The notes beneath the pieces were generated by a model. The model was not told the origin of the DNA. It did no database searches and saw only the letters and a program-made list of their open reading frames with translations. The translations under genes and the position numbers were made by a program. 64,000 bases of DNA, from NCBI GenBank assembly GCA_017460175.1, contig JAFUBO010000004.1:23592-87591 (forward strand), read 5' to 3'. This DNA comes from Bacilli bacterium. Its GTDB lineage: Bacteria > Bacillota_I > Bacilli_A > RF39 > UBA660. This document shows, piece after piece, positions 6,450-58,381 of this stretch (positions are counted from its first letter, which is position 1; every line of letters begins with the position of its first letter).

Positions 6450-6560
6450 CCCCCTAAATACTTGAAGCCTTCTGTACCTTCAATGTACACATATTATACT
6501 ACTTTTTCATTGATTTGTCAAACATTTTTTCGTAAAAAAAGATAAAAAAGTTTTTCTTTT

Positions 6561-32394: not shown

Positions 32395-33543
32395 TTATTC
32401 ATTCTCTTTTATAAATTTATTGAACTTTTTAATTTCGTCTGTATCTAATTCTGTTCTTGATAATTTTTCAATTAATTCTTTTTGTTCTCTTGTTAATCTA
32501 TTAGGGGTATAAACTTTAAAGATTAAGTACATATCACCTTTAATTTTTCTAAATCTATTATCTACACCTTTACCTTTTATTCTTTGTTTGTCTCCACTAT
32601 TAGTTCCAGCTGGAATGTTTATTTTTACATTACCATATAATGTAGGTATATCTTTCTTACAACCTAATATTGATTCAGTAAGTGTTAGTGGTACTTCTAG
32701 ATAAATGTCATTTTCGTCACGTTCAAAATATTTATGTCTTCCTACTACGAATTCAATATATAAATCACCATTTTCTCCACCATTTATACCAGGATTACCT
32801 TTACCACTGATTTTTTGTCTATCTCCTGTATTAATACCCTCTGGTATGTTAATAGTGATTTTTTTATTAATTTTAACTTTTCCTTTACCATTACATTCAG
32901 AACATTTTCTTTTGTATGTATGTCCAAGTCCTTTACAATCTGGACATGTTGTTTTTGACATAAATGATCCAAGTATTGTTCTTTGTTCATGAGTTACAGT
33001 TCCACTTCCATGACATGTATGGCATGTTTCTCTATCAAATCCACCATTACCATGACATTCGCTACACTCTTCTACTACATCTAAATTGAATTTTTTTTCT
33101 GTACCATAGATTGCTTCATCAAATGATAAGTCTAAACGCATTAGTATATCACTGCCACGAGTTGGACGATTAGTAGTACTTCCTCTTCCTCCAAAACCAG
33201 TAAAATTTGAAAAACCTCCACCAAAAATAGAATCAAATATATCTCCAAAATCAAAATCGGATGCATCAAAATTAGTATATGTTCCTCCACCAGGATATCC
33301 TGCAGTTGGTCCATTGCCACTTACTCCAGCATGTCCAAATTGATCATACATTTTTTTCTTATTTTCATCGCCTAATACTGAATATGCTTCTTGTACTTCT
33401 TTAAATTTATCTTCGGCTTTTGGATCGTCTTTGTTAAGGTCTGGGTGTAGTTCTTTTGCTTTTTTACGATAAGCACTTTTTATTTCAGCTTCTGTAGCAC
33501 CTTTTTTTATACCTAAAACCTCATAATAATCTCTTTTATCCAT
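32395..33543 (-). CDS. dnaJ: Chaperone DnaJ
   Basis: It has a J-domain with 'HPD', a G/F-rich linker and four CxxCxGxG zinc-finger repeats. It is 382 aa. Confidence 0.9.
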   Translation of the reverse strand: MDKRDYYEVLGIKKGATEAEIKSAYRKKAKELHPDLNKDDPKAEDKFKEVQEAYSVLGDENKKKMYDQFGHAGVSGNGPTAGYPGGGTYTNFDASDFDFGDIFDSIFGGGFSNFTGFGGRGSTTNRPTRGSDILMRLDLSFDEAIYGTEKKFNLDVVEECSECHGNGGFDRETCHTCHGSGTVTHEQRTILGSFMSKTTCPDCKGLGHTYKRKCSECNGKGKVKINKKITINIPEGINTGDRQKISGKGNPGINGGENGDLYIEFVVGRHKYFERDENDIYLEVPLTLTESILGCKKDIPTLYGNVKINIPAGTNSGDKQRIKGKGVDNRFRKIKGDMYLIFKVYTPNRLTREQKELIEKLSRTELDTDEIKKFNKFIKENE

Positions 33544-35413: not shown

Positions 35414-37237
<1,824 letters not shown>

Positions 37238-37253
37238 TTATTATCTCCTTTTC

Positions 37254-37811
37254 TTATTTTTGATTTATTTTTACTGATGCTGGACGAATTACTCTATCCT
37301 TTAACTTGTAACCTTTCAATAATACTTCTAGAACTATATCATCATTTTTTGATGAATCATTTTCTACTAAAAGTGCTTGTTCTTGATTAGGATCAAATAT
37401 TTGTCCAACACGATTTATTTCTTCTACTCCGTATTTCTTTAAAATATCATATAAATTCTTATGAATCATTTTAAATCCTACTAAGTATTTTTTTAATTCA
37501 TCACTTAAATCCTCTTCCTTATTAATAGCTCTTTCAAAATTATCAATAACTGGTAGAATTTCAGTAATAATACTTTGATTTGCATATTTTAATAAATTTT
37601 CGACTTCTTCATCTTTACGTCTTCTATAATTAATTAATTCTGCTTGAGAAAGTTTTACTTTTTCTAATAAACTTTTATTTTCTTCTGTTAAAGTATTTAT
37701 TTCGTTTTCTAGTTTTAACATTTCTTCATTTAATTTTGTGTCTTGTTCTAATTCTTTTGTTTCTTCTAGTAATTCTACATTTTCTTTTTCTTCTTCTTTT
37801 TTCTTTCTCAT
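37254..37811 (-). CDS. grpE: Nucleotide exchange factor GrpE
   Basis: This 185-aa protein has a coiled-coil N-terminus. Its C-terminal beta-domain pattern ('RRRKDEE', 'G.Q.FDPN.H.A') is GrpE-like. Confidence 0.9.
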   Translation of the reverse strand: MRKKKEEEKENVELLEETKELEQDTKLNEEMLKLENEINTLTEENKSLLEKVKLSQAELINYRRRKDEEVENLLKYANQSIITEILPVIDNFERAINKEEDLSDELKKYLVGFKMIHKNLYDILKKYGVEEINRVGQIFDPNQEQALLVENDSSKNDDIVLEVLLKGYKLKDRVIRPASVKINQK

Positions 37812-37816
37812 AAAGC

Positions 37817-38806
37817 CTACCTTTCAATATTCTCTTTCATATATTCTAATAGTCCAACAACACGATCATATTCCATTCTTTTTGGACCAATTATAGCGAT
37901 TGTACCTTCTTCATTACCTTTTTTAAATTTAGTCTGAATTACAGTCATATCACTATCTATATGATTTTCATTTCCAATATAAACTTTTATGTTATTATCA
38001 TCGTCTTCTTCAATATTTTTTAGTAATTGTTTGTCTTCTAATTTATTAAATACTTCTTTTATTTTATTTACATTTGAAGAAAACTCAGGTTGTTCTAACA
38101 TTTTTGTCTTTCCCATAATATTGACTTCTTGATTAGTGAAATCAGTAAATACATTATAGAAAGCATTATATAATTGTTCATGTTGTTTTACATATTTACC
38201 TATAATAGGTTTTATTTCAAACTCTAATTTAGATACTATATCATCTATTGGAGTTCCTGAGATCAAGTTATTAATCAATCCAACTGTTTTTCGTATTTCA
38301 TCTAAAGAAACATCTTTAAGTCTAATATTTTTGTGTTCTACATGTCCTTTATCTGTAACAATGATAACAGTCATATTTTCATCATCAATAGGAATTACTT
38401 CTATTTGTTTAAGAAGATTCTCATGAGATTTGCTTCCTAGCACTACTGTAGTGTAGTTCATCATATCAGATATTACTTGAAGACTTTTAGTAATAACATC
38501 TGATAGAGCTAGTTGTTGATTTTTGAAGACAATTTGTAATTTTAACATATCTTCTGCATTCATCTTTTTTAATTCCATTAAGTGATCTACATAATAACGA
38601 TATCCTGCCTCACTAGGAATTCTTCCTGAAGATGTATGAGTTTTTTCTAATAGTCCTAGTTTTTCAAGTTCTCCCATTTCATTTCGTACAGTAGCGCTTG
38701 AGCAATTGAGTTCCCTCGAAATTACTTTTGAGCCTACTGGAATCGGTTCTTTGATATACTTTTCAACTATTAGTTTAAGTATTTTTTCTTGTCTTTCGGT
38801 TGGCAT
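37817..38806 (-). CDS. hrcA: Heat-inducible transcription repressor HrcA
   Basis: The N-terminal winged-helix region 'RQEKILKLIVEKYIKEPIPVGSKVIS' is present. It is 329 aa and sits upstream of grpE-dnaK. CIRCE elements lie upstream. Confidence 0.9.
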   Translation of the reverse strand: MPTERQEKILKLIVEKYIKEPIPVGSKVISRELNCSSATVRNEMGELEKLGLLEKTHTSSGRIPSEAGYRYYVDHLMELKKMNAEDMLKLQIVFKNQQLALSDVITKSLQVISDMMNYTTVVLGSKSHENLLKQIEVIPIDDENMTVIIVTDKGHVEHKNIRLKDVSLDEIRKTVGLINNLISGTPIDDIVSKLEFEIKPIIGKYVKQHEQLYNAFYNVFTDFTNQEVNIMGKTKMLEQPEFSSNVNKIKEVFNKLEDKQLLKNIEEDDDNNIKVYIGNENHIDSDMTVIQTKFKKGNEEGTIAIIGPKRMEYDRVVGLLEYMKENIER

Positions 38807-38817
38807 AACTTACCTCC

Positions 38818-38844
38818 TTAGCACTGCTTTTATTCAAGTGCTAA
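38818..38844. promoter_or_regulatory. CIRCE operator (HrcA binding site) TTAGCACTG-N9-AAGTGCTAA
   Basis: It matches the established consensus TTAGCACTC-N9-GAGTGCTAA with 2 mismatches. It lies 12 nt upstream of the hrcA start. Confidence 0.7.
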
Positions 38845-38863
38845 TTATATAGTACTCTTATTT

Positions 38864-38890
38864 TTAGCACTTGTCAATAGTTTGTGCTAA
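38864..38890. promoter_or_regulatory. Second, more degenerate CIRCE-like inverted repeat TTAGCACTT-N9-TTGTGCTAA
   Basis: It is read directly 20 nt upstream of the first CIRCE, with 3 mismatches to consensus. Confidence 0.55.
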
Positions 38891-44862: not shown

Positions 44863-46770
44863 TTATTGAGCTATTTCATAATCATCTTCTAGAGAGAATT
44901 CTACGTTTTCTTCAATCCACTCTTTACGAGGTGGTACGTCATCTCCCATAAGAATTGATACACGTTTTTCTGCTAATTGTGCATCTTCTATATTTACTCT
45001 TATTAATGTACGACTACCTGGTTTCATAGTTGTTTCACAAAGTTGATCTGCGTTCATTTCACCAAGTCCTTTATAACGTTGAATATCGCATTTTTTACCT
45101 TTAGATTTTTCTTTCATTTCTTCGACTGTATAAGCATACTCTATATCTTTACCACTTTGTATTTTAAATAATGGTGGAAGGGCAACAAAAAGTCTTCCAT
45201 CTTCAATAAGTGGTTTCATATAACGATAAAAGAATGTTAAAAGTAAACATTGAATATGACCACCATCTTCATCTGCATCAGACATGATTATTACTTTAGA
45301 ATACTCGCAATCTTTTATATCAAAATTAGAGCCATATCCTGCACCTATTGTATATATCATTGTATTTATTTCTTCATTTTTTAAAATATCTTCTTCTTTT
45401 GTTTTTTCAGTATTAAGAACCTTTCCACGTAAAGGAAGAATTGCTTGATATAGTCGGTCTCTACCTTGTTTAGCAGAACCTCCTGCAGAATCACCTTCGA
45501 CTAAGAATAATTCCTTTTTATCTTTATCTTTACTCTGAGCTGGTGCAAGTTTACCGGAAAGAGATCTTTCTTTATTGTTTTTCTTAGTACCTTTTCGTGC
45601 TTCTTCTCTTGCTTTTCTTGCAGCTTCACGAGCAATCTTACTTCTTAAACTTTTATTAATTATTTCAGTAGCTATTGCTTTATTTTCTTCTAAGTATACT
45701 TTTAATTGTTCTGTAACAATATTTTCTACTGCATTCTTAGCTTGTGGTGTTCCAAGTTTTCCTTTAGTTTGTCCTTCAAATTGTAGAATTCCTTCAGGTA
45801 TTTTTAAACTAATTACAGCAGTTAATCCTTCACGAACATCACTACCTTCAAAAGCTTTATCTTTTTCTTTTACAAAACCATTTGATTTAGCATAATCATT
45901 AAATACTCTGGTTAAAGCAGTTTTAAACCCAACTTCATGAGATCCACCATCTATTGTCTTAACATTATTTACAAAACTCACTATATTTTCATTATAAGTA
46001 TCTGTATATTGCATAGATATTTCTACATCTATTTTATCTTTTGTTCCATTTATACTTAATACTTTATGCAAAGTATTTTTTCCTTTATTTAAATCTTCAA
46101 CAAATTCTTCTATTCCTCTTTCATAACAGTATTTAGCATCACGATTATCTTCTTCATCGATTACTTCTATAGTGATACCTTTTAGTAAGAAAGCTGATTC
46201 TTGCATTCTTTCACATACTGTAGTAAATGAAAAATTAGTAGTTGAAAATATTTCAGGATCAGGCATAAAACGTACAGTAGTTCCTGTTCTATTAGTTGGT
46301 CCTACTTTTTTTAAAGGCACAGCAACATGACCACCATTTTCAAATCTAATGTATGATTCTTCTTTATCTCTTTTAATGGTTACTTCCATCCGTTTTGATA
46401 AGGCATTAACAACTGAAGAACCAACTCCATGTAGTCCACCTGATACTTTATAACCATCTGATTCAAACTTACCACCGGCATGAAGTACTGTATATATTAC
46501 TTCAGGAGTAGATTTTCCTGATTCATGCATTCCTGTTGGTACACCACGACCATGGTCTTCAACGGATACTGATCCATCTTTATGTAATATAATTTTAATG
46601 TAATCTCCATATCCATTTATAGCTTCATCTACTGAATTATCTACTATCTCCCAAATAAGATGATGTAATCCTCTTTTATCAGTTGAACCTATATACATAC
46701 CAGGACGTTTTCTAACAGCTTCTAGTCCCTCTAGTATTTTAATAGACGATGCATCATATTTACCGGCCAT
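44863..46770 (-). CDS. parE: DNA topoisomerase IV subunit B (GHKL ATPase + TOPRIM)
   Basis: 'GLHHLIWEIVDNSVDE' (Bergerat fold), 'GLHGVGSSVVNALS', TOPRIM 'LFLVEGDSAGGSAKQGRDR' and 'PLRGKVLN' are present. It is 635 aa. Adjacency to parC favours ParE over GyrB. Confidence 0.75.
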   Translation of the reverse strand: MAGKYDASSIKILEGLEAVRKRPGMYIGSTDKRGLHHLIWEIVDNSVDEAINGYGDYIKIILHKDGSVSVEDHGRGVPTGMHESGKSTPEVIYTVLHAGGKFESDGYKVSGGLHGVGSSVVNALSKRMEVTIKRDKEESYIRFENGGHVAVPLKKVGPTNRTGTTVRFMPDPEIFSTTNFSFTTVCERMQESAFLLKGITIEVIDEEDNRDAKYCYERGIEEFVEDLNKGKNTLHKVLSINGTKDKIDVEISMQYTDTYNENIVSFVNNVKTIDGGSHEVGFKTALTRVFNDYAKSNGFVKEKDKAFEGSDVREGLTAVISLKIPEGILQFEGQTKGKLGTPQAKNAVENIVTEQLKVYLEENKAIATEIINKSLRSKIAREAARKAREEARKGTKKNNKERSLSGKLAPAQSKDKDKKELFLVEGDSAGGSAKQGRDRLYQAILPLRGKVLNTEKTKEEDILKNEEINTMIYTIGAGYGSNFDIKDCEYSKVIIMSDADEDGGHIQCLLLTFFYRYMKPLIEDGRLFVALPPLFKIQSGKDIEYAYTVEEMKEKSKGKKCDIQRYKGLGEMNADQLCETTMKPGSRTLIRVNIEDAQLAEKRVSILMGDDVPPRKEWIEENVEFSLEDDYEIAQ

Positions 46771-46871
46771 ATCTTATCACTCCTATGTTTCCACATATAT
46801 TATTATATCGAAGGAAGTGTAAATTTTCAATTGACTTTACTTTATTTTACATTTTTTCTTTATATATCAAC

Positions 46872-46900
46872 AAAAAAAGTATTTACTGGATACTTTTTTT
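46872..46900. terminator. Bidirectional-capable terminator at the end of the Cpn60-like gene (AGTAT-ttactgg-ATACT between A7 and T7)
   Basis: The hairpin is read directly. Confidence 0.45.
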
Positions 46901-48432
46901 TACATTATATTATTATTTATTTCTTCTTTCAAGTTTATAACTAAAGATGACGTAGAAAGTAAAATTGAAGATATACTCAATGCATTTTTAAATGCACATA
47001 TAATAACATCAGCAGGATCAATTATATTACTATTATTTATAGATACATAATCATTTATTTTATAATCATAAACTAAATTATATTTATTTTTAATAATATT
47101 ATTCTTTATATCTTTATAATCTAATCCTAAATTCTCCATAACCTTTTCAAATGGCTTTTCTAAAGATTTTTTAAGTATCATAGATGCTGTATTATCAGAC
47201 TCAAGTATCTCACTTACTTTCAAGTAAGTTATTCCTTCTCCAATAACAATTCCATTTTTTGCAGTTTCTAGTGCACATATTGCATCTTCAAAACGCATTA
47301 ATTTTTCTCTTCTTTCAGATTTAGTAGTACCACCTACATAAATAGTAGTAATTCCTTCTTCTAATTTAGAAATACGACTAGCAATAAACTCTTTTTCATA
47401 ATCACTATTACATGTTTTTAGTTCTTCTTTTAGTTTATTAATTAATTCTATACTATTCTTAGAATCTAGTAATACTATTTCATCATTTTTTATTATTACA
47501 TTATCAATTATGCCTAAGTCACTAAATGTAGTTTCTTCATAATCAATATTCTTAATATTAGATTTTGAAAGGAATGATATATCTTCTTCAATTTTATCTC
47601 TATGGGATGAGTATTCTTCTAATTCTACTACAAAAATATTTTTATGATTAAAGTAATATACTAATACTTCATTTTTAATTTCTTCATTCATAGCTTCTAC
47701 TAGTATTAATAAATTCTTATCATTTTCTAATGCATCATTTACTATATCACTGATTGATTCTAAATTGTCAAAATATCCTTTTAATACTAATACATTAACA
47801 TCTTTTAACTCAATAGTTTTATTTTTTGTAAAATACATACTTGATATATTATTAATTGGAATATTATAACCTTTTTTATTAATACTATATGTTTCTTCAT
47901 TATTTGATTCTTCTAGTTTAATTGAATATTTACTTTTAACTTTTCCAAATATTTCTGTAGTAAGTTTTCCTATTTCATAGTCATTTGATGAAGTAGTTGC
48001 AATACTTAATAAATCATCATCTGTTGGTTCTTGTTTTAATTTATTAATTTCTTCTACTACTTTATTCATACAAGATAATAATTCGTTTTTTAGTACTATT
48101 TTATTTTTACCATTATTTATTTCTTCAAGTCCTAAATTAAAAATGCTTTGTAAAAGTACTAAAGTAGTTGTTGTTCCATCTCCTACTAATTCATTTGTTT
48201 TTAGTGATGCTTCTTTTACTATTTCTAGTACTGTATTAATTTTTTCATCTTCACTTTCTATGTTACTAGCTATTGTTACACCATCGTTTGTGATAAATGG
48301 TGTTACCTCACTATTATTAATTAATATATTATTCCCAGTTGGACCTAAAGTACTTGATACTGTATCACATAATAAATTAACTGCATCACTCATTACTTTT
48401 TTTAATTCTTCTCCGCTTATTACTTTTTTCAT
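46900..48432 (-). CDS. Highly divergent GroEL/Cpn60-family protein (full three-domain architecture, no Gly-Met tail, no adjacent groES)
   Basis: By-eye alignment to GroEL is co-linear. 'LGPTGNNILI' aligns with LGPKGRNVVL and 'FITNDGVTIA' with TITKDGVSVA. 'VGDGTTTTLVL' matches AGDGTTTATVL (ATP-binding). '...GITTIYVGGTTKSE' matches GGVAVIKVGAATEVE and 'IIDPADVI' matches ILDPTKVT. It is 510 aa. It overlaps the upstream gene by 4 nt (ATGA). Confidence 0.6.
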   Translation of the reverse strand: MKKVISGEELKKVMSDAVNLLCDTVSSTLGPTGNNILINNSEVTPFITNDGVTIASNIESEDEKINTVLEIVKEASLKTNELVGDGTTTTLVLLQSIFNLGLEEINNGKNKIVLKNELLSCMNKVVEEINKLKQEPTDDDLLSIATTSSNDYEIGKLTTEIFGKVKSKYSIKLEESNNEETYSINKKGYNIPINNISSMYFTKNKTIELKDVNVLVLKGYFDNLESISDIVNDALENDKNLLILVEAMNEEIKNEVLVYYFNHKNIFVVELEEYSSHRDKIEEDISFLSKSNIKNIDYEETTFSDLGIIDNVIIKNDEIVLLDSKNSIELINKLKEELKTCNSDYEKEFIASRISKLEEGITTIYVGGTTKSERREKLMRFEDAICALETAKNGIVIGEGITYLKVSEILESDNTASMILKKSLEKPFEKVMENLGLDYKDIKNNIIKNKYNLVYDYKINDYVSINNSNIIDPADVIICAFKNALSISSILLSTSSLVINLKEEINNNIM

Positions 48433-49175
48433 AATTCATCCTCCACTTCAAGCATATTTTTCCAATACTTCTTAGGCATAAAGTTTTGTCTACATCTTTT
48501 GTTTTCTCTTTCTTTAATACCTATTGTTTTATAGAATGTTTTCCATAAATCTTCTATTAAGTCTTCATTATCTTTTTCTAGATTCAAACTTATTACTTCT
48601 TCATCAGTTAAATAAATTACTTTTTCTTTATCATATATAGCATATATTCCTCTTTTAGTATCATGAATTATCCAGTTATCACTCATTAATCTTTTACTAA
48701 AATGACTAGCAAGTATACCTATAACATTATTATTAGACTCAAATTTAGCATAATAAAAATTATTTTTCATTTTACTGAATCTTAAAAAACCTTTTAATTT
48801 ATGTGCTTCTCCCCTAACGTATTTAGATATTTGAATTGATTCATTTACACAATCTATATTTCTTCTTCCAAATACTGTTTTTCCATATTTAAAATAACTT
48901 TTTAAGAAATTATAAATAATAATTTCTTTATTTTTATTATCTGATAAGAATACATTATATATACAATATAATGCTTCTCTACTAATTTTATTTTTTAGAA
49001 GTTTAATGTTTTCTTGTTCATTTTCTACTTTTAAATATATTTCAGTATCAAATAAACCTAAGTCATATGAATTTATTAGTTTTATATCATCAGGTGTTAT
49101 TTTATTTTTAAATAATTCTACTACTAAAGCAATAAAACTAATAAATCCTCCATCATAAATATATATCTTATTCAT
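48429..49175 (-). CDS. DUF4130-like 'probable DNA metabolism protein' partner of the radical SAM enzyme (TIGR03915-like, assignment by context and size)
   Basis: This 248-aa protein overlaps the rSAM gene by 8 nt upstream and the Cpn60-like gene by 4 nt downstream. I cannot verify family motifs by eye. Confidence 0.45.
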   Translation of the reverse strand: MNKIYIYDGGFISFIALVVELFKNKITPDDIKLINSYDLGLFDTEIYLKVENEQENIKLLKNKISREALYCIYNVFLSDNKNKEIIIYNFLKSYFKYGKTVFGRRNIDCVNESIQISKYVRGEAHKLKGFLRFSKMKNNFYYAKFESNNNVIGILASHFSKRLMSDNWIIHDTKRGIYAIYDKEKVIYLTDEEVISLNLEKDNEDLIEDLWKTFYKTIGIKERENKRCRQNFMPKKYWKNMLEVEDEL

Positions 49176-50388
49176 TGAATAGACTTAATTGAACTCCTTT
49201 ATTAGATACTACTTTATCTTCTAAAACTAAATTAGCTTCTATTATTTTTTTATTAAATATGTTTGTATCAGTAAAATATTTCCCATTACAAGTAATAAAG
49301 TATTTAGCACGTTTTAATGATATATTCATTTTCTTTAAATCATTAAACTCTAATTTATAATACTTTCTATTGGAAACTATCTTTTTAGCGTTTCTAGGAC
49401 CAATTCCTGGGATTTTAAGTAAATCATAGTAGCTCGCAGTATTAATCTCTTTAGGATACTCTTCTAAGTGTCTTAGGGCCCAATCTGCTTTAGGATCTAT
49501 TAAGATATTAAAATTAGGATTATCATGTGATAATAAATCATCTACTTTGTAGTTATAAAATCTAAGTAACCAATCTGCTTGGTATAAACGATTTTCACGA
49601 ACCAGTGGAGGATTCTTAATAGCAGGTAATAGTTTATCTTTGTTAACTGGAATATAAGCTGAATAAAATACTCTTTTTAAAGAATAATTATTATATAAGT
49701 TTTCACTCTTACCAAGAATATCTAAATCAGTTTCACCTGTTGCTCCTACTATCATTTGAGTAGATTGCCCTGCAGGTGTGAAACTTCTACTTCTATTTAC
49801 TTTAATAGTTTTCATGATATTAGTAACTTTATCTTCATTTTTATTAGGAGCAAGTAATTTTAATCCATTACTTGTTGGAAGTTCTATATTAGCACTAACT
49901 CTATCTGCGAGAGTTCCAAGTTTTTTTAACAATACTTCACTAGCACCAGGTATTGCTTTAACATGAATATAACCATTAAAATGATACTTCTTACGTAGTA
50001 AATATAAAGTTTCAATTAATTTCTCCATAGTATAATTAGGAGACTTAATAATACCACTAGATAAAAATAATCCTTCAATATAGTTTCGTTTATAAAAATT
50101 CATTGTAATTTCACATATTTCAACCGGAGTAAATATAGCTCTTTTTACATCATTACTCTTTCTATTTATACAATACTTACAATCAAATATACATGAATTA
50201 GTCATAAGTATTTTTAAAAGTGAGATACAACGGCCATCACTAGCAAAAGAATGGCAAATACCTGAATACGCTGCATTACCAGTACCATTAGTGTTTGACC
50301 TAGTGCTACCACTTGAAGAACATGATGCATCATATTTAGCTGAATCACTTAGTATAATTAACTTCTCTTTTATTGTCATATTATTCAC
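49168..50388 (-). CDS. Radical SAM protein of the putative DNA modification/repair class (TIGR03916-like; SplB/photoproduct-lyase-related)
   Basis: The N-terminal CxxxCxxC 'CIFDCKYC' is preceded by an aromatic/Ser-rich stretch. A C-terminal helix-hairpin-helix 'LLKIPGIGPRNAKKIV' is present. It is 406 aa. Confidence 0.65.
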   Translation of the reverse strand: MNNMTIKEKLIILSDSAKYDASCSSSGSTRSNTNGTGNAAYSGICHSFASDGRCISLLKILMTNSCIFDCKYCINRKSNDVKRAIFTPVEICEITMNFYKRNYIEGLFLSSGIIKSPNYTMEKLIETLYLLRKKYHFNGYIHVKAIPGASEVLLKKLGTLADRVSANIELPTSNGLKLLAPNKNEDKVTNIMKTIKVNRSRSFTPAGQSTQMIVGATGETDLDILGKSENLYNNYSLKRVFYSAYIPVNKDKLLPAIKNPPLVRENRLYQADWLLRFYNYKVDDLLSHDNPNFNILIDPKADWALRHLEEYPKEINTASYYDLLKIPGIGPRNAKKIVSNRKYYKLEFNDLKKMNISLKRAKYFITCNGKYFTDTNIFNKKIIEANLVLEDKVVSNKGVQLSLFNE

Positions 50389-50435
50389 CTAAATATATTA
50401 TACATCTGTTCGATAATATATTTCAAGAATATTTT

Positions 50436-50449
50436 CGAAAAAATGTTCG
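50436..50449. promoter_or_regulatory. Candidate LexA (Cheo) box CGAAAAAATGTTCG upstream of the rSAM operon
   Basis: It matches the Firmicutes LexA consensus CGAACRNRYGTTCG at 12/14 positions (half-sites GAAA / GTTC). It lies ~48 nt upstream of the rSAM start codon. Confidence 0.4.
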
Positions 50450-50452
50450 AAG

Positions 50453-51304
50453 TTATTCTATCATTTTATTATGTTCATATTTATCTAATTCTTTAAGACT
50501 CTTATTGGGTGTTGGTAAATCTTCAGGCATAGTACCACCTATATCAGTAATTGCCTTTCTAACCTTTTTGCCAACTTCATAATGAGTATTACAAGATAAT
50601 CCTTCACTTTTCTTTTTTTGTTTAGTAAGCAAATCTTCTGTTTGAGTTATTCTAAATATATTGGCACCTAATTCTACACTACCCATATTATCTAGTATTT
50701 CTTCTCTATATCTCAATCTTTTTCTTTTAGCTATATCATCAGCAGTTTCTCCATTATATAAACCTTTATATCCGGCATTAGTAAATTTATCAAAGTTTTT
50801 TACTCCTTTTAAACTAGCTATTTTATTCAAAGATTTATTACTTTCTTTTACTTGTTTTCTTCTATATATCCTTTTCTCATATTCGCTCATTAAATCATAA
50901 GATTTTTCTAATAATTCTTGGTGTCGTGTTTGAATTGCAAAATATGTTTGAGCAAGTGCAATTACTTTTTTTCTAGAATCACCATTCATCGCAATTAAGT
51001 AACAAGCATAGCGTGATAGTTTATAATCATCTACTTTTCTTTTGCCACCTTTACCTATGTTTATCAATTTCCCAACCCCGGGAAAATGATCATTGATATC
51101 ATAACCACTATTCTTACAGGTTTCTTTAGCACTATCAATAGTATTGGAAAATCTTTCCCATTTTTTATAGTCTAAAACACCCATCAATTCACGCGCTAAC
51201 CAGTATTCTTTTCTCTCCTCATCAATATGTTTAATACTTTCAAATATAGTATTATTTATTTCTTTTAAATCCATAAAATTCCTCCTTGAGGAAAAACTAT
51301 ACAA
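50453..51304 (-). CDS. dinD: DNA-damage-inducible protein D
   Basis: It is co-linear with E. coli DinD. '(F)WLARELMGVLDYKKWERF' aligns with FWSARELAPLLDYRDWRNF. 'LSRYACYLIAMNGD' aligns with LSRYACYLVVQNGD and 'AQTYFAIQTRHQEL' with GQTYFAIQTRRQEL. 'GANIFRITQTED' and the C-terminal 'IGGTMPEDLPTP' also match. Confidence 0.8.
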   Translation of the reverse strand: MYSFSSRRNFMDLKEINNTIFESIKHIDEERKEYWLARELMGVLDYKKWERFSNTIDSAKETCKNSGYDINDHFPGVGKLINIGKGGKRKVDDYKLSRYACYLIAMNGDSRKKVIALAQTYFAIQTRHQELLEKSYDLMSEYEKRIYRRKQVKESNKSLNKIASLKGVKNFDKFTNAGYKGLYNGETADDIAKRKRLRYREEILDNMGSVELGANIFRITQTEDLLTKQKKKSEGLSCNTHYEVGKKVRKAITDIGGTMPEDLPTPNKSLKELDKYEHNKMIE

Positions 51305-51430
51305 TATTTAAAATTATCATGCAAACCACCATTTATTTAAATTCAAACAAAAAAATAACTGAATTAAATTAATTCACTTTAGTGAATATTTAAAATTCAG
51401 TTATATATTTATATTTAATTATCAAGTTTA

Positions 51431-52615
51431 TTAGTCTCTTGAGAAAATATCTCTAGTATAAATTATATCTTTAACATCATCTAATTCATTATCTACTCTA
51501 TTAACTATAATAGTATCAGAAATATCTTTAAATAGTTTTAAATCATGAATTACTTCAAAATCATTAAAAGTATTATCTTTAATAGTAGGCTCATATATTA
51601 CTATATTTATACCTTGTTCTTTTAATATATTAATAACTCCTTGAATAGCACTAGCTCTAAAGTTATCTGAACCACTCTTCATAGTTAATCTATATACTCC
51701 TACTACTTTAGGATTTTTCTTTAATATCATATCAGCTATATGATGTTTTCTTGTATCATTAGATTTAACTATAGCTTCTATTAAATTTTCAGGTACATCT
51801 TTATAGTTAGCAAGTAATTGTTTAGTATCCTTAGGTAGACAATAACCACCATATCCAAAAGATGGATTATTATAATGAGCACCTATTCTTGGATCTAGAC
51901 ATACTCCATCAATAATATCTTTAGTATTTAGTCCTTTTAATTCAGCATATGTATCTAATTCATTAAAGTAACTTACACGTAAAGCTAAATAAGTATTCGC
52001 AAATAACTTAACTGCTTCAGCTTCTGTAGAATCCATATATTTGATTACTACATCTTCTTTTAGACAAGCATTCTTTAAAAGTTCAGCAAATTCTTTAGCT
52101 CTTTCGCTCTTTTCACCTACTATAATTCTGGATGGATATAAATTATCATATAAAGCTTTACCTTCTCTTAAAAATTCAGGTGAAAACATAATATTATCTA
52201 TATTATATTTTTTCTTCATACTTTCAATAAATCCAACTGGAATAGTAGACTTAACTACCATTGTAGTATCAATACCCATACTAATTACTTTTTCAATTAT
52301 ATCTTCTACACTAGATGTATCAAAATAATTTAATTCATCATCGTAATTAGTAGGCGTACTAATGATTATAAACTTTGCATCACGAAAAGCTTCTTCATAA
52401 TCTAAAGTTGCCCTTAAATTTAAAGTTTTTTCATCAAAATACTTTTCAATATATTCATCTTTAATAGGACTAATACGCTTATTAATCATATTAACCTTCT
52501 CTTCTATTACATCTAAAGCTACTACTTCATTTTCTATACTAAGTAATGTCGCTAAAGACAATCCAACATAACCTGTACCTGCAACTGCTATTTTCATTTT
52601 ATTACTTCCTTTCAA
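51431..52615 (-). CDS. ugd: UDP-glucose 6-dehydrogenase
   Basis: The Rossmann N-terminus '[20 protein letters not shown]' and the catalytic 'GGYCLPKD' are present. It is 394 aa. Confidence 0.85.
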
Positions 52616-52749
52616 TCGACTAGATAATTATAACACAAAATAAATAGTTTTCAAGCATAATTAATTACTATTTATAATTTTTTTAATTTTATTTAATTGA
52701 TTGCATAATTAATTTTTATAGATATTTATATCAATTAAAAACATAAATA

Positions 52750-53634
52750 CTATTTTTTAGGTAATTCTAGCAATTTTCCAATTTCATAATCCCATTTTTT
52801 ATCTAAAAAAGGAATAATTCCACCACCTGTAAAAAAGGTCATTTCTCCAAAATAAATTTTTCCATTTATATTATAAAAATCAACTCTAACGTGTGGCATA
52901 TTTTTTGATAATATTTCTGCAAGTTCTTTCATTTTATTAAAATTTTTAGGTTTTTTAGGAACTTGCTCAAAATCCAAATAATCATTTCTTTTAATATTAA
53001 GTTGATTATAATTCATATCAAAAAAAGCTATTTGTTGTTTGTTTGTGTGTGAGTTTTTAGAAACATACATAATTTTGGGAATACCATCAAAACAGAAAAA
53101 TTTATAATCATTTAGTTCTTTATTTGTTTTATCTTCTATATATTCTTCTGCAATTATCCTTGGCTTTACATTTTTATATGGCCATTCTCTACCATGATGA
53201 TAGTAGTTTGTTCTTAATGATTTAGTTATTTTATTCTTTATATCTATAATATTAATTTTTGATTTATCCTTGCAAATAATAACTCCACCAGAATCATGTG
53301 TACATTTCAAAACAAATTGATTTGGCAAATTATCAAAATTTATTTCATCAAAATTATCCCATACACCTAATGTTTTGATTATGTACTCCTTTCCAATTAA
53401 ATCGTGTACATATTTTTTTACTTCATATTTATCTACTAATTTAATATATAAAGGATTTCTATCATATAGTTTTAGCCATTGCATTTTTTCATTAAAAGAT
53501 TTCGGATTTTTTAAATCTAATCTATGACCTGTTTTGACTTTATATAATAATTTTATATATAATTTATCACTTAGAATATTAAGTAAATTTCTCCTCTCTA
53601 ATGCTAAAATTGATTTCTTAAAAAAATCTTTCAT
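52750..53634 (-). CDS. TupA-like ATP-grasp amidoligase family protein (polysaccharide modification)
   Basis: It is a paralog of the next gene. 'KPRIIAEEYIEDKTNKELNDYKFFCFDG' and 'MPHVRVDFYNINGKIYFGEMTF' are the shared signatures. Confidence 0.55.
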   Translation of the reverse strand: MKDFFKKSILALERRNLLNILSDKLYIKLLYKVKTGHRLDLKNPKSFNEKMQWLKLYDRNPLYIKLVDKYEVKKYVHDLIGKEYIIKTLGVWDNFDEINFDNLPNQFVLKCTHDSGGVIICKDKSKINIIDIKNKITKSLRTNYYHHGREWPYKNVKPRIIAEEYIEDKTNKELNDYKFFCFDGIPKIMYVSKNSHTNKQQIAFFDMNYNQLNIKRNDYLDFEQVPKKPKNFNKMKELAEILSKNMPHVRVDFYNINGKIYFGEMTFFTGGGIIPFLDKKWDYEIGKLLELPKK

Positions 53635-53639
53635 ACTGA

Positions 53640-54539
53640 CTACTCACCATCTTTCATATTAGGTAGTTTTAACCATTCTCCAATTTTGTAATCCCATTCA
53701 TCAGGTTCAAAAGGTACAATTCCAGACCAGTGATAAAATGTCATTTCTCCAAAATAAATTTTTCCATTTACATTATAAAAATCAACTCTAACGTGTGGCA
53801 TGTTTTTTGATAATATTTCTGCAAGTTTTTTCATTTTATCATAAGTATTTGGAACTTTTATATCTTGCGGAGAATTTGGATGCCCATTTGTAAAAGGTAA
53901 ATGATTCAATTCATCATCATAAAAATCAAAATATGTATCACCTTTACCTTGTCTGTTTGATGCTATAAATAGCATTTTTACTTTACCATCAAAGCAAAAA
54001 AATTTATAATCTCTCAATTCTTTATCAACTGTATCTTCCATATATTCTTCTGCAATTATTCTTGGTTTTACATTTTTGTAAGGCCATTCTCTACCACCAG
54101 TATAAAAATAGTTTGTTTTTAATGATTTGTTAATTTTTCGTTTTGCGGCTTTAAAATCAAATGTTTCTTTGTTTTTGCAAATGACAATGCCACCAGAATC
54201 ATGAGTACATTTCAATACAAATTTATTTGGTAATGAATCAAAATCTATTTCATCAAATTTATCCCAAACACCTAATGTTGGAATTATATATTGATCACCT
54301 ATTTCTTTAGCTACCAATTCTTTCACTTCATACTTATCGACTAATTTTGTATATATTGGATTTCTATTATACAACTTTAGCCATTGTAATTTTTCATTGT
54401 ATGTTTTTGGGTTGTTTAAATTCAATTTTTTATCTAATTTAACCCAATACATCAATTTTAAGTAATTTTTATCACTTAAAAAATTCAACAATCCTTTTCT
54501 ATTTAAAAAAGAAAAAGTAAATTTAAATATTTTATTCAT
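53640..54539 (-). CDS. TupA-like ATP-grasp amidoligase family protein (second tandem paralog)
   Basis: It is ~55-60% identical by eye to the 52750-53634 product, with the same 'KPRIIAEEYMED...DYKFFCFDG' and 'MPHVRVDFYNVNGKIYFGEMTF' motifs. Confidence 0.55.
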   Translation of the reverse strand: MNKIFKFTFSFLNRKGLLNFLSDKNYLKLMYWVKLDKKLNLNNPKTYNEKLQWLKLYNRNPIYTKLVDKYEVKELVAKEIGDQYIIPTLGVWDKFDEIDFDSLPNKFVLKCTHDSGGIVICKNKETFDFKAAKRKINKSLKTNYFYTGGREWPYKNVKPRIIAEEYMEDTVDKELRDYKFFCFDGKVKMLFIASNRQGKGDTYFDFYDDELNHLPFTNGHPNSPQDIKVPNTYDKMKKLAEILSKNMPHVRVDFYNVNGKIYFGEMTFYHWSGIVPFEPDEWDYKIGEWLKLPNMKDGE

Positions 54540-56065
54540 TCTTGGATTCTCCCATTCTTTTTTTTCATATTTTTTAATATATTTAATGTATTCTTAAAAT
54601 CTTTATTATATATTAACACGTTTGCAATCATAACAATTACTGAGGACATTGTAAATACTTTTAATGCATCTATAACCCATTCCACATAATTTGTTGCCTT
54701 TACAATATTCATATAATAGATTATACCACAGCATAGTACCATTTCAATAATACTAAATATAGCCTTTTTAAATGCTATGCTACTTTTTCTATATAAAACT
54801 TTTTTTGATGTATAAATCATAAATTCAATTGTTCTTATTATCATTGCAACTATTGTACCTATAGTAACACCTATTAAACCAAATTTAAATACAAGTATTA
54901 TTGAAATCACCAAATTAATTATTGCTTCTAAAATAGCACCGTTTCTTGTTTCTTTAAATTTACCAGCGGCTAAAGTAATTGTACTATATGGTAACCTAAT
55001 AGCATGAATATATTCAGCAAATGACATTAATATTGCAAAAACTGGTCTGTAATAATTTACATCTTTTACGTTTCTTGTATATATACATACAAATGAGCTT
55101 AATAACGAAATAGTACATATATAAATTATCGTAATTAATGTATAATATAGAAATTCATAAACACTAAAACTATTATTTAGGTGTTCTTTCTCATCTTTTG
55201 CTATCATATTTCCAAAAGAAGCATCTACGCCATTACTAATTGCTTGTATTAATTTTTTTATTCCATTTATGACTAGATAGTGAACAGAATATACGGAAAC
55301 TTCTAGTACATTGGTAAAAATTGTTAGTATTGTTACATCAGTGTTACCATGTATAACTGCTGCAATATGTTGTGCTAATCCATCCCATTTTTTTTCTATT
55401 TTATAATTTTTATTAGCTTTACGTAAATTAATATTATATTTTTTCTTGACATAAACATTTTGCAAAATTGGTCTTATAACAAAAATTAAACTACTTACTA
55501 GTTTTACAATCAAGATATTTGCATTTAATCTTATTAATACTACTACAAAAATAGTATTTAAAACTGTTGTTAGTATTTGCAACAATGATACTATATATAA
55601 TTTTTGTTCAGCTTGAAGATATATCTTATATGTCATTCCAAAATAGTACTCTGCAAATGTACTAATTGATATTATAATTAATAAAGTTATTGTAAAAATA
55701 TGATTAAAATTAGTAGAAACTAATGTAGGATATATAAATATCAATATTATAATATATACAATAAAAATACGTGCAATTATCTTAAAAAATCTTTCAGTAG
55801 CATATAGTATATTTTCTATTTCTTGCTTGTTTTTTTTGGCTATTGGTTTATACAATAGTGATTTTATTACTGGACTAAAACCTGAATCCAACAAAACTAT
55901 ATATGCCAAAAATTGTGTAATTGATGATATTAAACCATTTACGCTTGATCCAAATTTAGAAATAATCAATCTTGGCACTATTAATCCACATACTATAGTA
56001 ACAGTTTGCTGTATTAATGTATATATAATATTCTTTAACGCCTTTTTACTTCTCACCGTTATCAC
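54536..56065 (-). CDS. wzx: Oligosaccharide flippase (Wzx / polysaccharide biosynthesis protein, MOP superfamily)
   Basis: This 509-aa protein has ~12-14 TM segments. The N-terminal 'KNIIYTLIQQTVTIVCGLIVPRLIISKFGSSVNG' is a typical PST-family start. Confidence 0.65.
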   Translation of the reverse strand: MITVRSKKALKNIIYTLIQQTVTIVCGLIVPRLIISKFGSSVNGLISSITQFLAYIVLLDSGFSPVIKSLLYKPIAKKNKQEIENILYATERFFKIIARIFIVYIIILIFIYPTLVSTNFNHIFTITLLIIISISTFAEYYFGMTYKIYLQAEQKLYIVSLLQILTTVLNTIFVVVLIRLNANILIVKLVSSLIFVIRPILQNVYVKKKYNINLRKANKNYKIEKKWDGLAQHIAAVIHGNTDVTILTIFTNVLEVSVYSVHYLVINGIKKLIQAISNGVDASFGNMIAKDEKEHLNNSFSVYEFLYYTLITIIYICTISLLSSFVCIYTRNVKDVNYYRPVFAILMSFAEYIHAIRLPYSTITLAAGKFKETRNGAILEAIINLVISIILVFKFGLIGVTIGTIVAMIIRTIEFMIYTSKKVLYRKSSIAFKKAIFSIIEMVLCCGIIYYMNIVKATNYVEWVIDALKVFTMSSVIVMIANVLIYNKDFKNTLNILKNMKKKNGRIQE

Positions 56066-56074
56066 TCCATAAAT

Positions 56075-57277
56075 TTATTTTTTTATAATTATATCTTTAT
56101 CTTTTATATTTGTACATATTAGTGATATTGTTAATATTAATAAATATATTTTCATATAATAACTTATTGTTCCATAATCTAGTATTAAGAAGACAATTAA
56201 ATTACATAATCCAAATCTAACAATACTATTGTCTCTATTTTTGTAATTTTTAAAGATTAATACAATTGGATACAAATAATATAGTAAAAATCCAATTATC
56301 CCTGAATTAGATAATAATTCTACATAATTGCAATGACTATAAACAGCACTTATATCCCACATATTTAAGAATTCCGTTTGAGTTGATAACCATATCTTAA
56401 ATCCATCCATACCATTACCAATAACTGGCTTTTGCAAAAATAAATCAATTGCAAATTTAATAAAATATCCTCTTACTTTAGTGCTTGCATCTGAATTTGA
56501 ATTATTTCCAAACATAGATAATATTTTAGTATTAAAAATGTAATTTGCACTACTGTTATATTTTATAATAAAAAGTGCTAATATTCCAATAAATATAAGA
56601 ATGATTATATTTTTTATATTATTTTTTATTCCTTTTTCAAAAATATGCATTATTGCAACAAGCAACAATAAATGAATTATACATTTTCGGGAACCTGTTG
56701 ATAATGATAATATTGATAATAGAATAAATAAAATTATATTTACTTTATTCTTATTTTCATATTTGTATAGGAATAGTGAGAAAAAAGCTGCATAAGCTAG
56801 ATAATATCCTGCAGAATTTCTCCAGATTCCAAGATACTCTCCCATGCTTGTACTTCCCCACGTTGATATTGGTGAAGTCATATAATAAATTATACCCATA
56901 ATAAAAGTTGTGTATGTAAATATTTTTATAAAAGAAAATATTTTTTCTTCTCTATTCATATATTTTACAGCACAATATATTATAATTATCATTTCAAATA
57001 TATTTCTAATTATTGATGATTGTGTATTTGTTGAATTACTGGCCCAAAAAAATGACAAAAGTGTATAACAAAAAAACAATATAAAATATAAGACTATTTT
57101 ATTATTTTTTAATTCATCATTAGTACTATGCTTTTTTGTGTACAAAAGTGTAGCAATTAAAAGTACTATTGTACTTACATAATGCATATATATAAATATT
57201 TTATCAAATACATATATTGTCAGGAAATATAATATCCATAATAAAGATAAAATATTAATTTTTTTCATATTATTCAA
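56075..57277 (-). CDS. O-antigen/polysaccharide polymerase or ligase-like membrane protein (Wzy-type)
   Basis: This 400-aa protein is very hydrophobic with multiple TMs. It carries a ~40-aa periplasmic-loop region typical of Wzy_C proteins ('STGSRKCIIHLLL'). Confidence 0.55.
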   Translation of the reverse strand: MNNMKKINILSLLWILYFLTIYVFDKIFIYMHYVSTIVLLIATLLYTKKHSTNDELKNNKIVLYFILFFCYTLLSFFWASNSTNTQSSIIRNIFEMIIIIYCAVKYMNREEKIFSFIKIFTYTTFIMGIIYYMTSPISTWGSTSMGEYLGIWRNSAGYYLAYAAFFSLFLYKYENKNKVNIILFILLSILSLSTGSRKCIIHLLLLVAIMHIFEKGIKNNIKNIIILIFIGILALFIIKYNSSANYIFNTKILSMFGNNSNSDASTKVRGYFIKFAIDLFLQKPVIGNGMDGFKIWLSTQTEFLNMWDISAVYSHCNYVELLSNSGIIGFLLYYLYPIVLIFKNYKNRDNSIVRFGLCNLIVFLILDYGTISYYMKIYLLILTISLICTNIKDKDIIIKK

Positions 57278-57280
57278 CCC

Positions 57281-58381
57281 CTATCTAATATTATTTATCA
57301 TATCCATAAACTCCTTAATAACTATGTTTTCTGAATAATTATTAATTATTTTTTCTCTTGCTTTTTTACCTATATTTTCTACTTTTGAATGTTCACTTAA
57401 TACTTTTTTTATTTTTAACTCTAAATCATCTAAAGATCCTTCTTCATATAATAATCCAACTTTGTTACTATCTATTAATGTTTTTGGACCTGTTTTACAA
57501 TCACTCGATATACATGGTAGACCAATTGCCATTGCTTCCATCAATGCATTAGGCATACCTTCATATCTGGATGTCATAACAAATAAATCAGAACTAATAA
57601 GTTCTTCCATTATATTATTTGTTCTTTCTTTTAAGAAAACTGTATTGCTTAAATTATATTTTTTTATTAATTCTAATAATTTATTTTTATTAGGGCCATC
57701 ACCAAATATTTTTAATTTTATATTAGGATAAGTGTTTTTTAAATCATATATTGCCCTTATAAGCATCTCATGGTTTTTTTGATTTGTTAATCGACCTACA
57801 CTAATAATATTAGTTATGTTTTTGTTATATATATTTTTCTTATTTTCTATAAATTCTGGTGATATAGGATTGTTTACAACATAAATTTTTTTATTTAATT
57901 GATTATCAAAAAAACTTTTTTGTTCATCATTTTGAACCATAATTGCATCACATTTTCTATTTATGTAATTTCTCATTATCTTATCTATCATTTTTCCTTC
58001 TTCATGCCATGGTGAATCTCTTATTGTTCTTATGAAGTATGCATTTGTAAATCTACTAGCAAGATAAGATACATATAAAATTGTACCAACAAATGGTATG
58101 ATGATATCAGGAGATATTTCTTTTATAATTTTTTTCATATCTGTAATTCGTTTTAATTTTGTAATAATACTATCTTTCCTATGTGGCATATAATGAACAT
58201 TAACTTTGTCATCTATTCTGTAATTATTATTACTTTTTTCATATAATATTATGTGAATATCATAGTTTTGTTTTACTAAACTATTACATAATACAGACAC
58301 TACTCTTTCTGCTCCTCCTCCAGTTAAACTTCGAATTATAAACAATATTCTTTGTTTTTTTATTATTTTCATATCATTCAT
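57281..58381 (-). CDS. Glycosyltransferase family 4 (GT-B, retaining)
   Basis: The N-terminal 'GGGAERVV' and the C-terminal 'EGMPNALMEAMAIGLPCIS' (EX7E-type motif) are present. Confidence 0.75.
   Translation of the reverse strand: MNDMKIIKKQRILFIIRSLTGGGAERVVSVLCNSLVKQNYDIHIILYEKSNNNYRIDDKVNVHYMPHRKDSIITKLKRITDMKKIIKEISPDIIIPFVGTILYVSYLASRFTNAYFIRTIRDSPWHEEGKMIDKIMRNYINRKCDAIMVQNDEQKSFFDNQLNKKIYVVNNPISPEFIENKKNIYNKNITNIISVGRLTNQKNHEMLIRAIYDLKNTYPNIKLKIFGDGPNKNKLLELIKKYNLSNTVFLKERTNNIMEELISSDLFVMTSRYEGMPNALMEAMAIGLPCISSDCKTGPKTLIDSNKVGLLYEEGSLDDLELKIKKVLSEHSKVENIGKKAREKIINNYSENIVIKEFMDMINNIR

Follow-up and report, generated by a model that had tools for sequence, protein, structure and literature searches.

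Why should a gene for a GroEL-like chaperonin lie in one operon with the two genes of a putative DNA-repair enzyme? The question is raised by a 64-kb stretch of contig JAFUBO010000004.1, referred to here as the window, from the metagenome-assembled genome (MAG) of an uncultured 'Bacilli bacterium' (26% G+C). On the minus strand of the window, the genes for a radical S-adenosylmethionine (rSAM) protein with a helix-hairpin-helix (HhH) domain and for a DUF4130 protein are followed by the gene for a divergent chaperonin (MBQ9019146.1, annotated in the database as 'hypothetical protein'). The three genes most likely form one translationally coupled operon that is switched on by DNA damage, with the chaperonin perhaps acting as the private chaperone of the enzyme encoded ahead of it. 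The operon consists of the following features.

49168–50388, minus strand: gene for the rSAM/HhH protein if started at a GTG (406 aa), or 49168–50379 if started at an ATG (403 aa), from the list of open reading frames (ORFs) and an alignment of homologues
48429–49175, minus strand: gene for the DUF4130/TIGR03915 protein (248 aa), from the ORF list
46900–48432, minus strand: gene for the divergent group I chaperonin (Cpn60/GroEL-like ATPase, 510 aa), from the ORF list
46866–46900, minus strand: terminator-like hairpin of 11 bp, nearly all A–U, followed by a U-run, from RNA folding

An earlier note on this DNA had given these positions for the three ORFs, with overlaps of 8 nt and 4 nt between them, and both the coordinates and the overlaps were confirmed. 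Read off the sequence, the rSAM and DUF4130 frames share the 8 nt ATGAATAA and the DUF4130 and chaperonin frames share the 4 nt ATGA, and a GGAGG lies within the 3′ end of the DUF4130 gene ahead of the chaperonin start. The note had started the rSAM gene at the GTG at 50388, but the ATG at 50379 is most likely the start because the sequence AGGTGA (50390–50385) ends 6 nt ahead of it and because the tblastn alignments found elsewhere start at residue 3–4. The hairpin that had been proposed as a terminator begins at the chaperonin stop codon and does have a U-run, but it is weak and A/U-rich (dG −6.9 kcal/mol, z −2.65). Three of 200 shuffled sequences folded equally well, and a G+C-based terminator scanner made no call for this hairpin 3′ of the chaperonin gene. 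Beyond it lie parE and parC, with a promoter-like site at 46830–46802 ahead of parE. A scan of positions 46000–52000 against Rfam gave no match, and hence no riboswitch or leader RNA was detected.

The rSAM–DUF4130 enzyme pair

The rSAM protein belongs to the putative DNA modification/repair class, as the note had proposed, and not to the SPASM maturases. It scored 615.1 bits against TIGR03916 (cut-off 343.5), with residues 6–394 aligned to positions 1–402 of the 415 in the model, and also matched the Pfam families PF04055 (Radical_SAM, 37.1 bits) and PF12836 (HHH_3, 28.6 bits). The CxxxCxxC motif is present in its sequence as CIFDCKYC (C63-x3-C67-x2-C70), and its cysteines were kept in 83 of 84 aligned homologues, the one exception being an alignment gap. 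Four further cysteines (C20, C42, C51 and C364) were kept in 82–83 of the 84, in both of the chaperonin-linked groups described below, and here the exceptions were alignment gaps and one Leu at C364. These four extra conserved cysteines suggest that the protein probably holds a second (auxiliary) Fe–S cluster joining the N-terminal extension to the C-terminal region.

The 248-aa protein had been predicted to be a DUF4130 protein and exceeded the cut-offs of both TIGR03915 (232.3 bits, cut-off 112.25) and PF13566 (DUF4130, 160.6 bits, cut-off 27). In the Pfam scan it proved to be a stand-alone protein without an additional domain. The chaperonin was thought to occupy the third position instead of a uracil-DNA glycosylase (UDG). 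It is indeed always found there, as detailed below, but 'instead of UDG' was not established; the UDG domain is fused to DUF4130 in some members of the family only. With a family-4 UDG sequence as query, tblastn detected none in the window or 85 loci, and no UDG family was present among the conserved neighbours when the ORFs flanking the three genes were clustered. One UDG gene was found 2.7 kb off in locus L173.

The TIGR03916/TIGR03915 pair occurs in about one fifth of bacterial genomes. It has been associated with SOS and mutagenesis genes (PMC3765255), and the operon encoding it in Verrucomicrobia was predicted to be regulated by LexA (PMC4951493). A structural analysis predicted with high confidence that the two proteins form a tight heterodimer, modelled DUF4130 as a non-catalytic, RecJ/DHH-like nucleic-acid-binding subunit and left the type of nucleic acid undecided (bioRxiv 10.64898/2026.08.19.745780). 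None of the three proteins encoded by the operon in the window matched a defence-system model in PADLOC.

A divergent group I chaperonin

The description of the third gene as encoding a full-length Cpn60/GroEL homologue was borne out, as the protein aligned end to end with GroEL models, yet it fell under all of the GroEL cut-offs and passed only the broad PF00118 (Cpn60_TCP1; 112.8 bits, cut-off 34.3). It scored 270.7 bits against TIGR02348 (GroEL, cut-off 582.1), and the best of the GroEL subfamily models was NF009487 (290.6 bits, cut-off 352). The NCBIfam model for chlamydial GroEL2 gave 52.7 bits (cut-off 600) and no GroEL3 match was reported. The protein is 26–34% identical to GroEL of Bacillus subtilis. 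A Pfam match to Fe-S_biosyn (E 0.0096, under the cut-off) was treated as noise. An AlphaFold2 (AF2) model with a predicted local distance difference test (pLDDT) value of 88.7 showed the three-domain fold, and Foldseek aligned it to GroES-bound GroEL/Hsp60 subunits with template modelling (TM) scores of 0.87–0.89.

The residues of the nucleotide pocket (T30-L31-G32-P33, D52, the GDGTTT of G86–T91, D398 and D495) were invariant or nearly so in 118–162 members of the family, from which ATP binding and hydrolysis would be expected. The N- and C-terminal ring-building strands and the stem-loop of the equatorial domain are also kept, and the protein probably forms rings. The inter-ring contact residues (R452, E461, V464 and A109) are not kept, the R197–E386 inter-subunit salt bridge of GroEL is replaced by Ile/Lys, and G415 of GroEL is Glu in most members. 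The apical domain diverges most: its identity to canonical GroELs is 22.8%, while that of the equatorial domain is 35.4%. Between members of the family the two domains reach 39.5% and 53.5%, whereas canonical GroELs are evenly 69–74% identical to one another. Eight hydrophobic apical residues of GroEL (Y199, Y203, F204, L234, L237, L259, V263 and V264) bind GroES and substrate. Of these, Y199, L234 and L259 have become Asn, Ser and Lys, with Ser234 found in 101 and Ile237 in 99 of 118 members. Positions 237, 263 and 264 remain hydrophobic, while the reading of 203/204 varies with the alignment used.

The GGM tail is absent from the family; the window protein ends in ...NLKEEINNNIM and the tails of its relatives are polar or acidic. 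Most of the chaperonins of loci L006–L085 have a short C-terminal motif of acidic and aromatic residues that closes with a hydrophobic one (...NDYNEL, ...NEYTEI or ...EYNNW), and the tail of the window chaperonin (...EEINNNIM) is a weaker version of this motif. From their sequence, such C-terminal motifs may be docking peptides.

Conservation of the linkage

Many homologues of about 510 aa were found in gut metagenomes, and three contigs that were sampled had the same gene order in unrelated surroundings. When one genome per GTDB species was scanned with family-specific peptide patterns, a relative was found in 303 species, of which the best 80 were analysed. All 80 come from uncultured Bacilli of the gut, under labels such as 'Tenericutes' and 'Erysipelotrichaceae'. 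The comparison (group A), made using tblastn, covered 83 non-duplicate loci, including the 80 from the GTDB species genomes. The DUF4130 gene was directly upstream of the chaperonin gene in 82 of the 83 loci, the exception having no upstream DNA. An rSAM gene was upstream of the DUF4130 gene in all 77 loci whose contig extends far enough, which supports the view that this rSAM class is always found with a TIGR03915 partner.

Clustering of the flanking ORFs recovered only three conserved families, present in 83, 80 and 77 loci, and the next family was present in 16. The three-gene unit is thus kept as a module in changing surroundings. Identity to the window proteins over the related loci is 67–91% for the rSAM protein, 41–83% for DUF4130 and 39–75% for the chaperonin. 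The overlapping junctions are also conserved across the family, in agreement with the translational coupling proposed earlier. The rSAM and DUF4130 genes overlap by 8, 4 or 1 nt in 61 of 77 loci, and the DUF4130 and chaperonin genes by 4 nt in 49 of 80.

As controls, 160 canonical groEL loci were examined, 80 from viral contigs and 80 from metagenomes. The metagenome set came from a scan with the group-B alignment (see below), in which matches to the generic GDGTTTA pattern dominated and which yielded canonical GroELs only. An rSAM or DUF4130 gene was nearby in none of the 160, compared with the three-gene order in every assessable related locus, and the linkage therefore exceeds chance. A groES gene beside the chaperonin gene, which in the earlier note would have told against its reading, was not found by tblastn in the window or within approximately 6 kb in any of the 83 group-A loci. 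In the controls, groES was upstream in 34 of 39 assessable loci from viral contigs and 71 of 73 from metagenomes (105 of 112 in all). The scan of viral contigs recovered only canonical GroELs, with no more than 32% identity, and the family of the window chaperonin was not found there; there is thus no sign of a phage origin.

The rSAM–DUF4130 pair itself is already known, as are specialised GroEL paralogues as a kind. In the literature that was searched, the pair is described as SOS-linked and a chaperonin partner is nowhere mentioned. As far as this literature shows, a LexA-box-controlled chaperonin cistron that is an obligate part of an rSAM–DUF4130 operon is undescribed, as the earlier note had supposed.

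Less diverged chaperonins in the same operon

A second set of rSAM-linked chaperonins (group B, 535–557 aa) was found via P0190, an A+T-rich GroEL representative. Group B takes in the proteins annotated as 'chaperonin GroEL' in four cultured Breznakia assemblies (MDF9825628.1 and three further accessions) as well as one from a Coprobacillaceae MAG. All seven of the group-B chaperonins that were looked up directly follow an rSAM–DUF4130 pair, two of them with a Cpn10 in between. A DUF4130 gene also precedes the gene for P0243, an intermediate form of 512 aa, on a contig that bears spore-germination genes, so that all eight of these further chaperonins were linked. Representative operons are as follows.

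L166, 2715–6614: four-gene operon, rSAM–DUF4130–Cpn10–Cpn60
L167, 3–3920: four-gene operon in the same order (in the two loci, Cpn10 is 87–91 aa and Cpn60 is 535–537 aa)
L168, 3195–7641: rSAM–DUF4130–Cpn60 in Breznakia sp. PF5-3 (JAQFIO010000051.1)
L170, 3236–7674: rSAM–DUF4130–Cpn60 of Breznakia type

The Cpn10 proteins of L166 and L167 have a GroES-like N-terminus and the GLII mobile-loop motif. Overlapping frames are seen in the four-gene operon of L166, and overlapping or nearly abutting ones in that of L167. Group-B chaperonins retain the canonical apical residues, E386 and G415, and the retention of the apical residues fits the occurrence of Cpn10 in some of their operons. Their tails have the form ...NDELL..S..G[LT][YF]. 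The near-canonical, A+T-rich P0179, on the other hand, is the product of an ordinary groES–groEL pair without an rSAM gene in an unrelated lineage.

Scores against the GroEL model step down along the series, with P0179 at the top (599), group B next (568 and 553), then P0243 (410) and lastly the window chaperonin (271). In a rough neighbour-joining tree all of the linked chaperonins fell together, apart from the canonical GroELs. The series from an operon with Cpn10 and Cpn60, to one without Cpn10, to the diverged 510-aa form suggests that a copy of groESL was captured behind the rSAM pair and that loss of Cpn10 and stepwise specialisation followed.

Promoter and LexA-like operator

The earlier note had pointed to a LexA-like box upstream of the operon. 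The box was found with one mismatch from the consensus and is conserved on the related promoters. The promoter region of the window operon contains the following.

50436–50449, minus strand: LexA-like (Cheo-box-like) palindrome CGAACATTTTTTCG, one mismatch from CGAAC-N4-GTTCG
50397–50426, minus strand: sigma-70-type promoter, TTGAAA (50426)-18-TATAAT (50397), matching 11 of 12 consensus positions
50412–50397, minus strand: half-site CGAACAGATGTATAAT, overlapping the −10 hexamer

The box is directly upstream of the −35 hexamer. It scored 16.2 bits on a position weight matrix (PWM) of the family, and only one other site in the window reaches 12 bits. The half-site over the −10 is identical in L001, L005, L007 and L009, and a one-base variant is found in L006. 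A palindrome of the form C[AG]AAC-AWWT-GTT[TC]G occupies a fixed place over the −35 region in approximately 68 of 74 non-redundant orthologous promoters, matching the Firmicute LexA motif GAAC-N4-GTTC (PMC4951493). Sites of at least 15 bits numbered 72 in 989 kb, and 68 of them are upstream of the rSAM gene. The promoter of the four-gene locus L166 has the same LexA-like box, CAAACAAACGTTTG. From the form and position of these sites we infer that the repressor is LexA and that the operon is induced by damage.

The Breznakia-type promoters (L168 and L170–L173) lack the GAAC-type box, and in its place the palindrome TTGCRTWWAYGCAA is repeated two to four times. In L168 and L170, a divergently transcribed gene for a 204-aa repressor with HTH_3 and Peptidase_S24 domains adjoins the operon. 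The C-terminal domain of this repressor scored 76 bits against the LexA model, below the cut-off of 110.95, and its VKAGYD and GDSM can be read as an Ala-Gly cleavage site and a catalytic-serine motif.

A second promoter element, AAWTT[ATG][GC]CA (for example AAAATTACCA or AAATTGGCA), was seen about 10–11 nt upstream of the LexA-like box in the L006–L085 promoters. It was present in 23 of 68 promoters, 17 times at the fixed spacing of 10–11 nt, the background rate being 0.009 per 45-nt window, and the promoter in the window has no clear copy of it. The element could be an UP element or the site of a second regulator.

Strong boxes away from the rSAM promoter were found ahead of a RhuM-family gene (L016, 226–1285), a gene for a bacterial SNF2 helicase (L008, 8651–11809) that is directly downstream of the L008 chaperonin gene, and a MgsA/RarA gene (L045, 5078–6512). 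These genes are all DNA-related and are candidates for the same regulon. The second site in the window is as follows.

6519–6532, minus strand: LexA-like box CGAAAAAATGTTTG, 15.8 bits, overlapping the −35 hexamer (TTGACA) of a good promoter

It precedes an ORF for a 142-aa protein (6021–6449, minus strand) that had no match in Pfam, NCBIfam or PADLOC and may be a further member of the regulon.

The heat-shock circuit of the organism is represented in the window by hrcA (37817–38806), which is preceded by two tandem elements (38818–38890) resembling the controlling inverted repeat of chaperone expression (CIRCE), with 2 and 3 mismatches. Downstream of hrcA, the ORFs at 37254–37811, 35414–37234 and 32395–33543 look like grpE, dnaK and dnaJ by their size. 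When up to 3 mismatches were allowed, CIRCE was found in none of the 85 loci with the three genes compared with 32 of 80 canonical groEL loci, and the window has no CIRCE besides the two at 38818–38890. With no CIRCE and a LexA-like box at the operon, although the organism has HrcA, and CIRCE at hrcA, the chaperonin gene stands outside the heat-shock circuit.

Possible roles of the chaperonin

Our preferred reading, to which we give about an even chance, is that the operon is damage-induced and that its GroEL paralogue, working without GroES, serves a labile Fe–S DNA enzyme of two subunits as a private chaperone. A LexA-type repressor would sit on the promoter palindrome and, on damage, RecA would stimulate self-cleavage of the repressor and so de-repress the operon. 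Judging by family knowledge and the published model, the rSAM protein would be a DNA-binding radical enzyme with an HhH domain and DUF4130 its non-catalytic subunit, and the two would presumably act on a DNA lesion through radical chemistry, either reversing or modifying it. The chaperonin would retain ATP binding and hydrolysis, be free of any dependence on GroES and on HrcA/CIRCE, and serve as a dedicated folding, assembly or maintenance chaperone of this enzyme. It would be made in step with its client on an SOS trigger and not on heat shock. In Escherichia coli, GroE stabilises the SOS polymerase subunit UmuC and affects the levels of Pol IV (PMC6590174).

Several points weigh against this proposal. 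Every step in it is computational. We infer both the client relationship and the oligomeric state of the chaperonin, and the former comes from gene linkage, which a working subunit would show just as well. The PWM scored the very promoters on which it had been trained, so that the rarity of sites elsewhere is the only independent evidence it provides. Searches for lexA and recA found neither gene in the window or the related loci, and the palindrome is thus assigned to LexA by resemblance; its second position is A, not the canonical G, in most loci. Long branches or a shared A+T-rich composition could distort the neighbour-joining tree of the chaperonins. Finally, tblastn with GroEL and GroES of B. 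subtilis gave no match other than the divergent gene, either in the window or in the related loci, and there is a small chance that the chaperonin has a housekeeping role.

If the chaperonin were not a folding helper but itself a working, ATP-driven subunit built into a DNA repair or modification machine with three components, it might evict or remodel proteins at lesions, handle DNA–protein cross-links or gate the access of DNA to the rSAM active site. The absolute linkage and the translational coupling imply a fixed stoichiometry, and the apical domain has been remodelled yet is kept within the family, as seen at Ser234 and Ile237. Many of the chaperonin tails (NDYNEL, EYTEI) resemble a docking peptide, and the chaperonin and DUF4130 have evolved at similar rates, as seen from the ranges of identity given above for the three proteins. 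We nevertheless regard this as unlikely. The less diverged linked forms retain canonical apical residues and two have an operonic Cpn10, which points to an ordinary encapsulating chaperonin as the start; there is no indication of DNA binding in the chaperonin sequence, and we know of no group I chaperonin that is a subunit in the catalytic cycle of a DNA enzyme. It seems distinctly unlikely that an exapted chaperonin ring unfolds or extracts cross-linked or stalled proteins on damaged DNA so that the rSAM–DUF4130 enzyme can act. The gene could also be the fast-evolving general GroEL of the lineage, fixed by chance behind the rSAM–DUF4130 pair in an ancestor and kept there by descent. This would agree with the intact ATPase residues, with the failure of tblastn to find a canonical groES or groEL either in the window or across related loci totalling about 0.9 Mb, and with queries using P0190 and P0179, which turned up no co-resident canonical GroEL. 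The lineage is A+T-rich and several of its records are labelled Tenericutes or Mycoplasma, a group in which some members have lost or degraded chaperonins. We think it improbable in view of the absence of groES from all of the group-A loci and its presence in most controls, the replacement of apical residues that contact GroES and substrate, and the promoter, which has a LexA-like box and no CIRCE in an organism with HrcA and CIRCE at hrcA. Moreover, only the three-gene unit is kept while its flanks vary between loci, the same linkage is found in relatives with larger genomes (cultured Breznakia and the organism with spore-germination genes), and the family evolves much faster than canonical GroELs (40–54% identity within it against 69–74% among them).

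The remaining alternative concerns the regulation and the substrate. The palindrome would belong to another regulator, and the three proteins would serve in DNA or RNA base modification or in an anti-phage role, not in SOS repair. TIGR03916 and TIGR03915 are biochemically uncharacterised, and the undecided nucleic-acid type in the structural analysis leaves room for such a function, as do the departure of the box from the canonical GAAC at its second position and the second conserved element 10–11 nt upstream of it. The other strong sites precede RhuM, SNF2 helicase and MgsA/RarA genes and not classic SOS genes. However, these are all DNA-transaction genes, and the operators of the two lineages, although of different types, each suggest a self-cleaving repressor of the S24 kind. 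LexA control of the gene pair was also inferred independently in Verrucomicrobia, PADLOC had no match for the three proteins, and the family was not found on viral contigs. We give this alternative little weight.

An obligate, co-transcribed chaperonin implies that the rSAM–DUF4130 enzyme is hard to fold, assemble or keep alive, and co-expression of its own chaperonin would be a practical route to soluble enzyme for biochemistry. If the private-chaperone proposal is correct, a chaperonin has come under SOS instead of heat-shock control; if the ring is a working subunit, the group I chaperonin fold would have acquired a task new to it and the SOS response a function of a new kind. The passage from a near-canonical GroEL with Cpn10 to a lidless, tail-less and apically remodelled form is a densely sampled natural series in one operon throughout. 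It is well suited to the question of how a generalist chaperonin turns specialist and loses its lid. As cultured Breznakia strains carry the system, the hypotheses are directly testable.

Other features of the window

The gene next to the operon promoter is dinD, which the earlier note had placed directly upstream.

50453–51304, likely start ATG 51274, same strand as the operon: dinD (NF008573, 328.8 bits), ending 3 nt before the LexA-like box

The protein also matches PDC-S13, a candidate defence family in PADLOC (331 bits). The identification and the adjacency are correct, but the association is incidental, as dinD adjoins the operon in only 2 of 85 loci (the window and L005), and it was not counted among the genes of the conserved unit. 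A separate promoter region serves dinD, with no LexA-like box of at least 12 bits ahead of the gene. There is no terminator between dinD and the operon promoter, and read-through into the operon is possible.

Further upstream on the same strand is a polysaccharide-synthesis cluster (51431–62533) that includes genes for a UDP-glucose dehydrogenase, two tandem TupA-like ATP-grasp proteins and a Wzy-like polymerase, together with two GT1 glycosyltransferases, a DXD glycosyltransferase and an acyltransferase. Elsewhere in the window, the ORFs at 6561–8966 (801 aa) and 8980–10890 (636 aa) had no real family match. The 801-aa protein is acidic and of low complexity, with a repeated EEKE(T/Q)E... segment, and the Pfam matches on the 636-aa protein look like composition artefacts.

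Comparison with known systems

The locus resembles known TIGR03916/TIGR03915 pairs in that both proteins exceed the curated cut-offs and are encoded by adjacent, overlapping genes in the canonical order, with the CxxxCxxC motif, the C-terminal HhH and a LexA-type operator on the promoter. In the known pair, DUF4130 is sometimes fused to a family-4-like UDG domain, whereas here it is unfused and UDG is not conserved nearby. The main difference is the chaperonin, which always follows as a third, translationally coupled cistron and appears in no description of the pair that was searched.

With canonical GroEL/GroES the chaperonin shares the three-domain architecture, the invariant nucleotide pocket and the ring-building terminal strands, but it lacks a groES partner, CIRCE/HrcA control and the GGM tail, and falls below the GroEL cut-offs. 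The GroE-dependent SOS polymerases of E. coli are a precedent for proteins of the DNA-damage response that need a chaperonin. GroE is, however, a housekeeping, heat-shock-regulated chaperonin encoded elsewhere, whereas the paralogue described here is built into a putative damage-response operon.

Specialised chaperonins include the nif-co-regulated groESL3 of Bradyrhizobium, mycobacterial GroEL1, chlamydial GroEL2/3 and the GroES-independent gp146 of phage EL. Like such paralogues, the window chaperonin is probably an extra copy, diverged and tied to one process, and, like the phage and some paralogous GroELs, it probably works without a co-chaperonin. It differs from them in that the tie is an obligate operon of overlapping ORFs with a DNA enzyme, under a LexA-type operator, and in that this linkage has been kept over hundreds of species and through a graded series of divergence.

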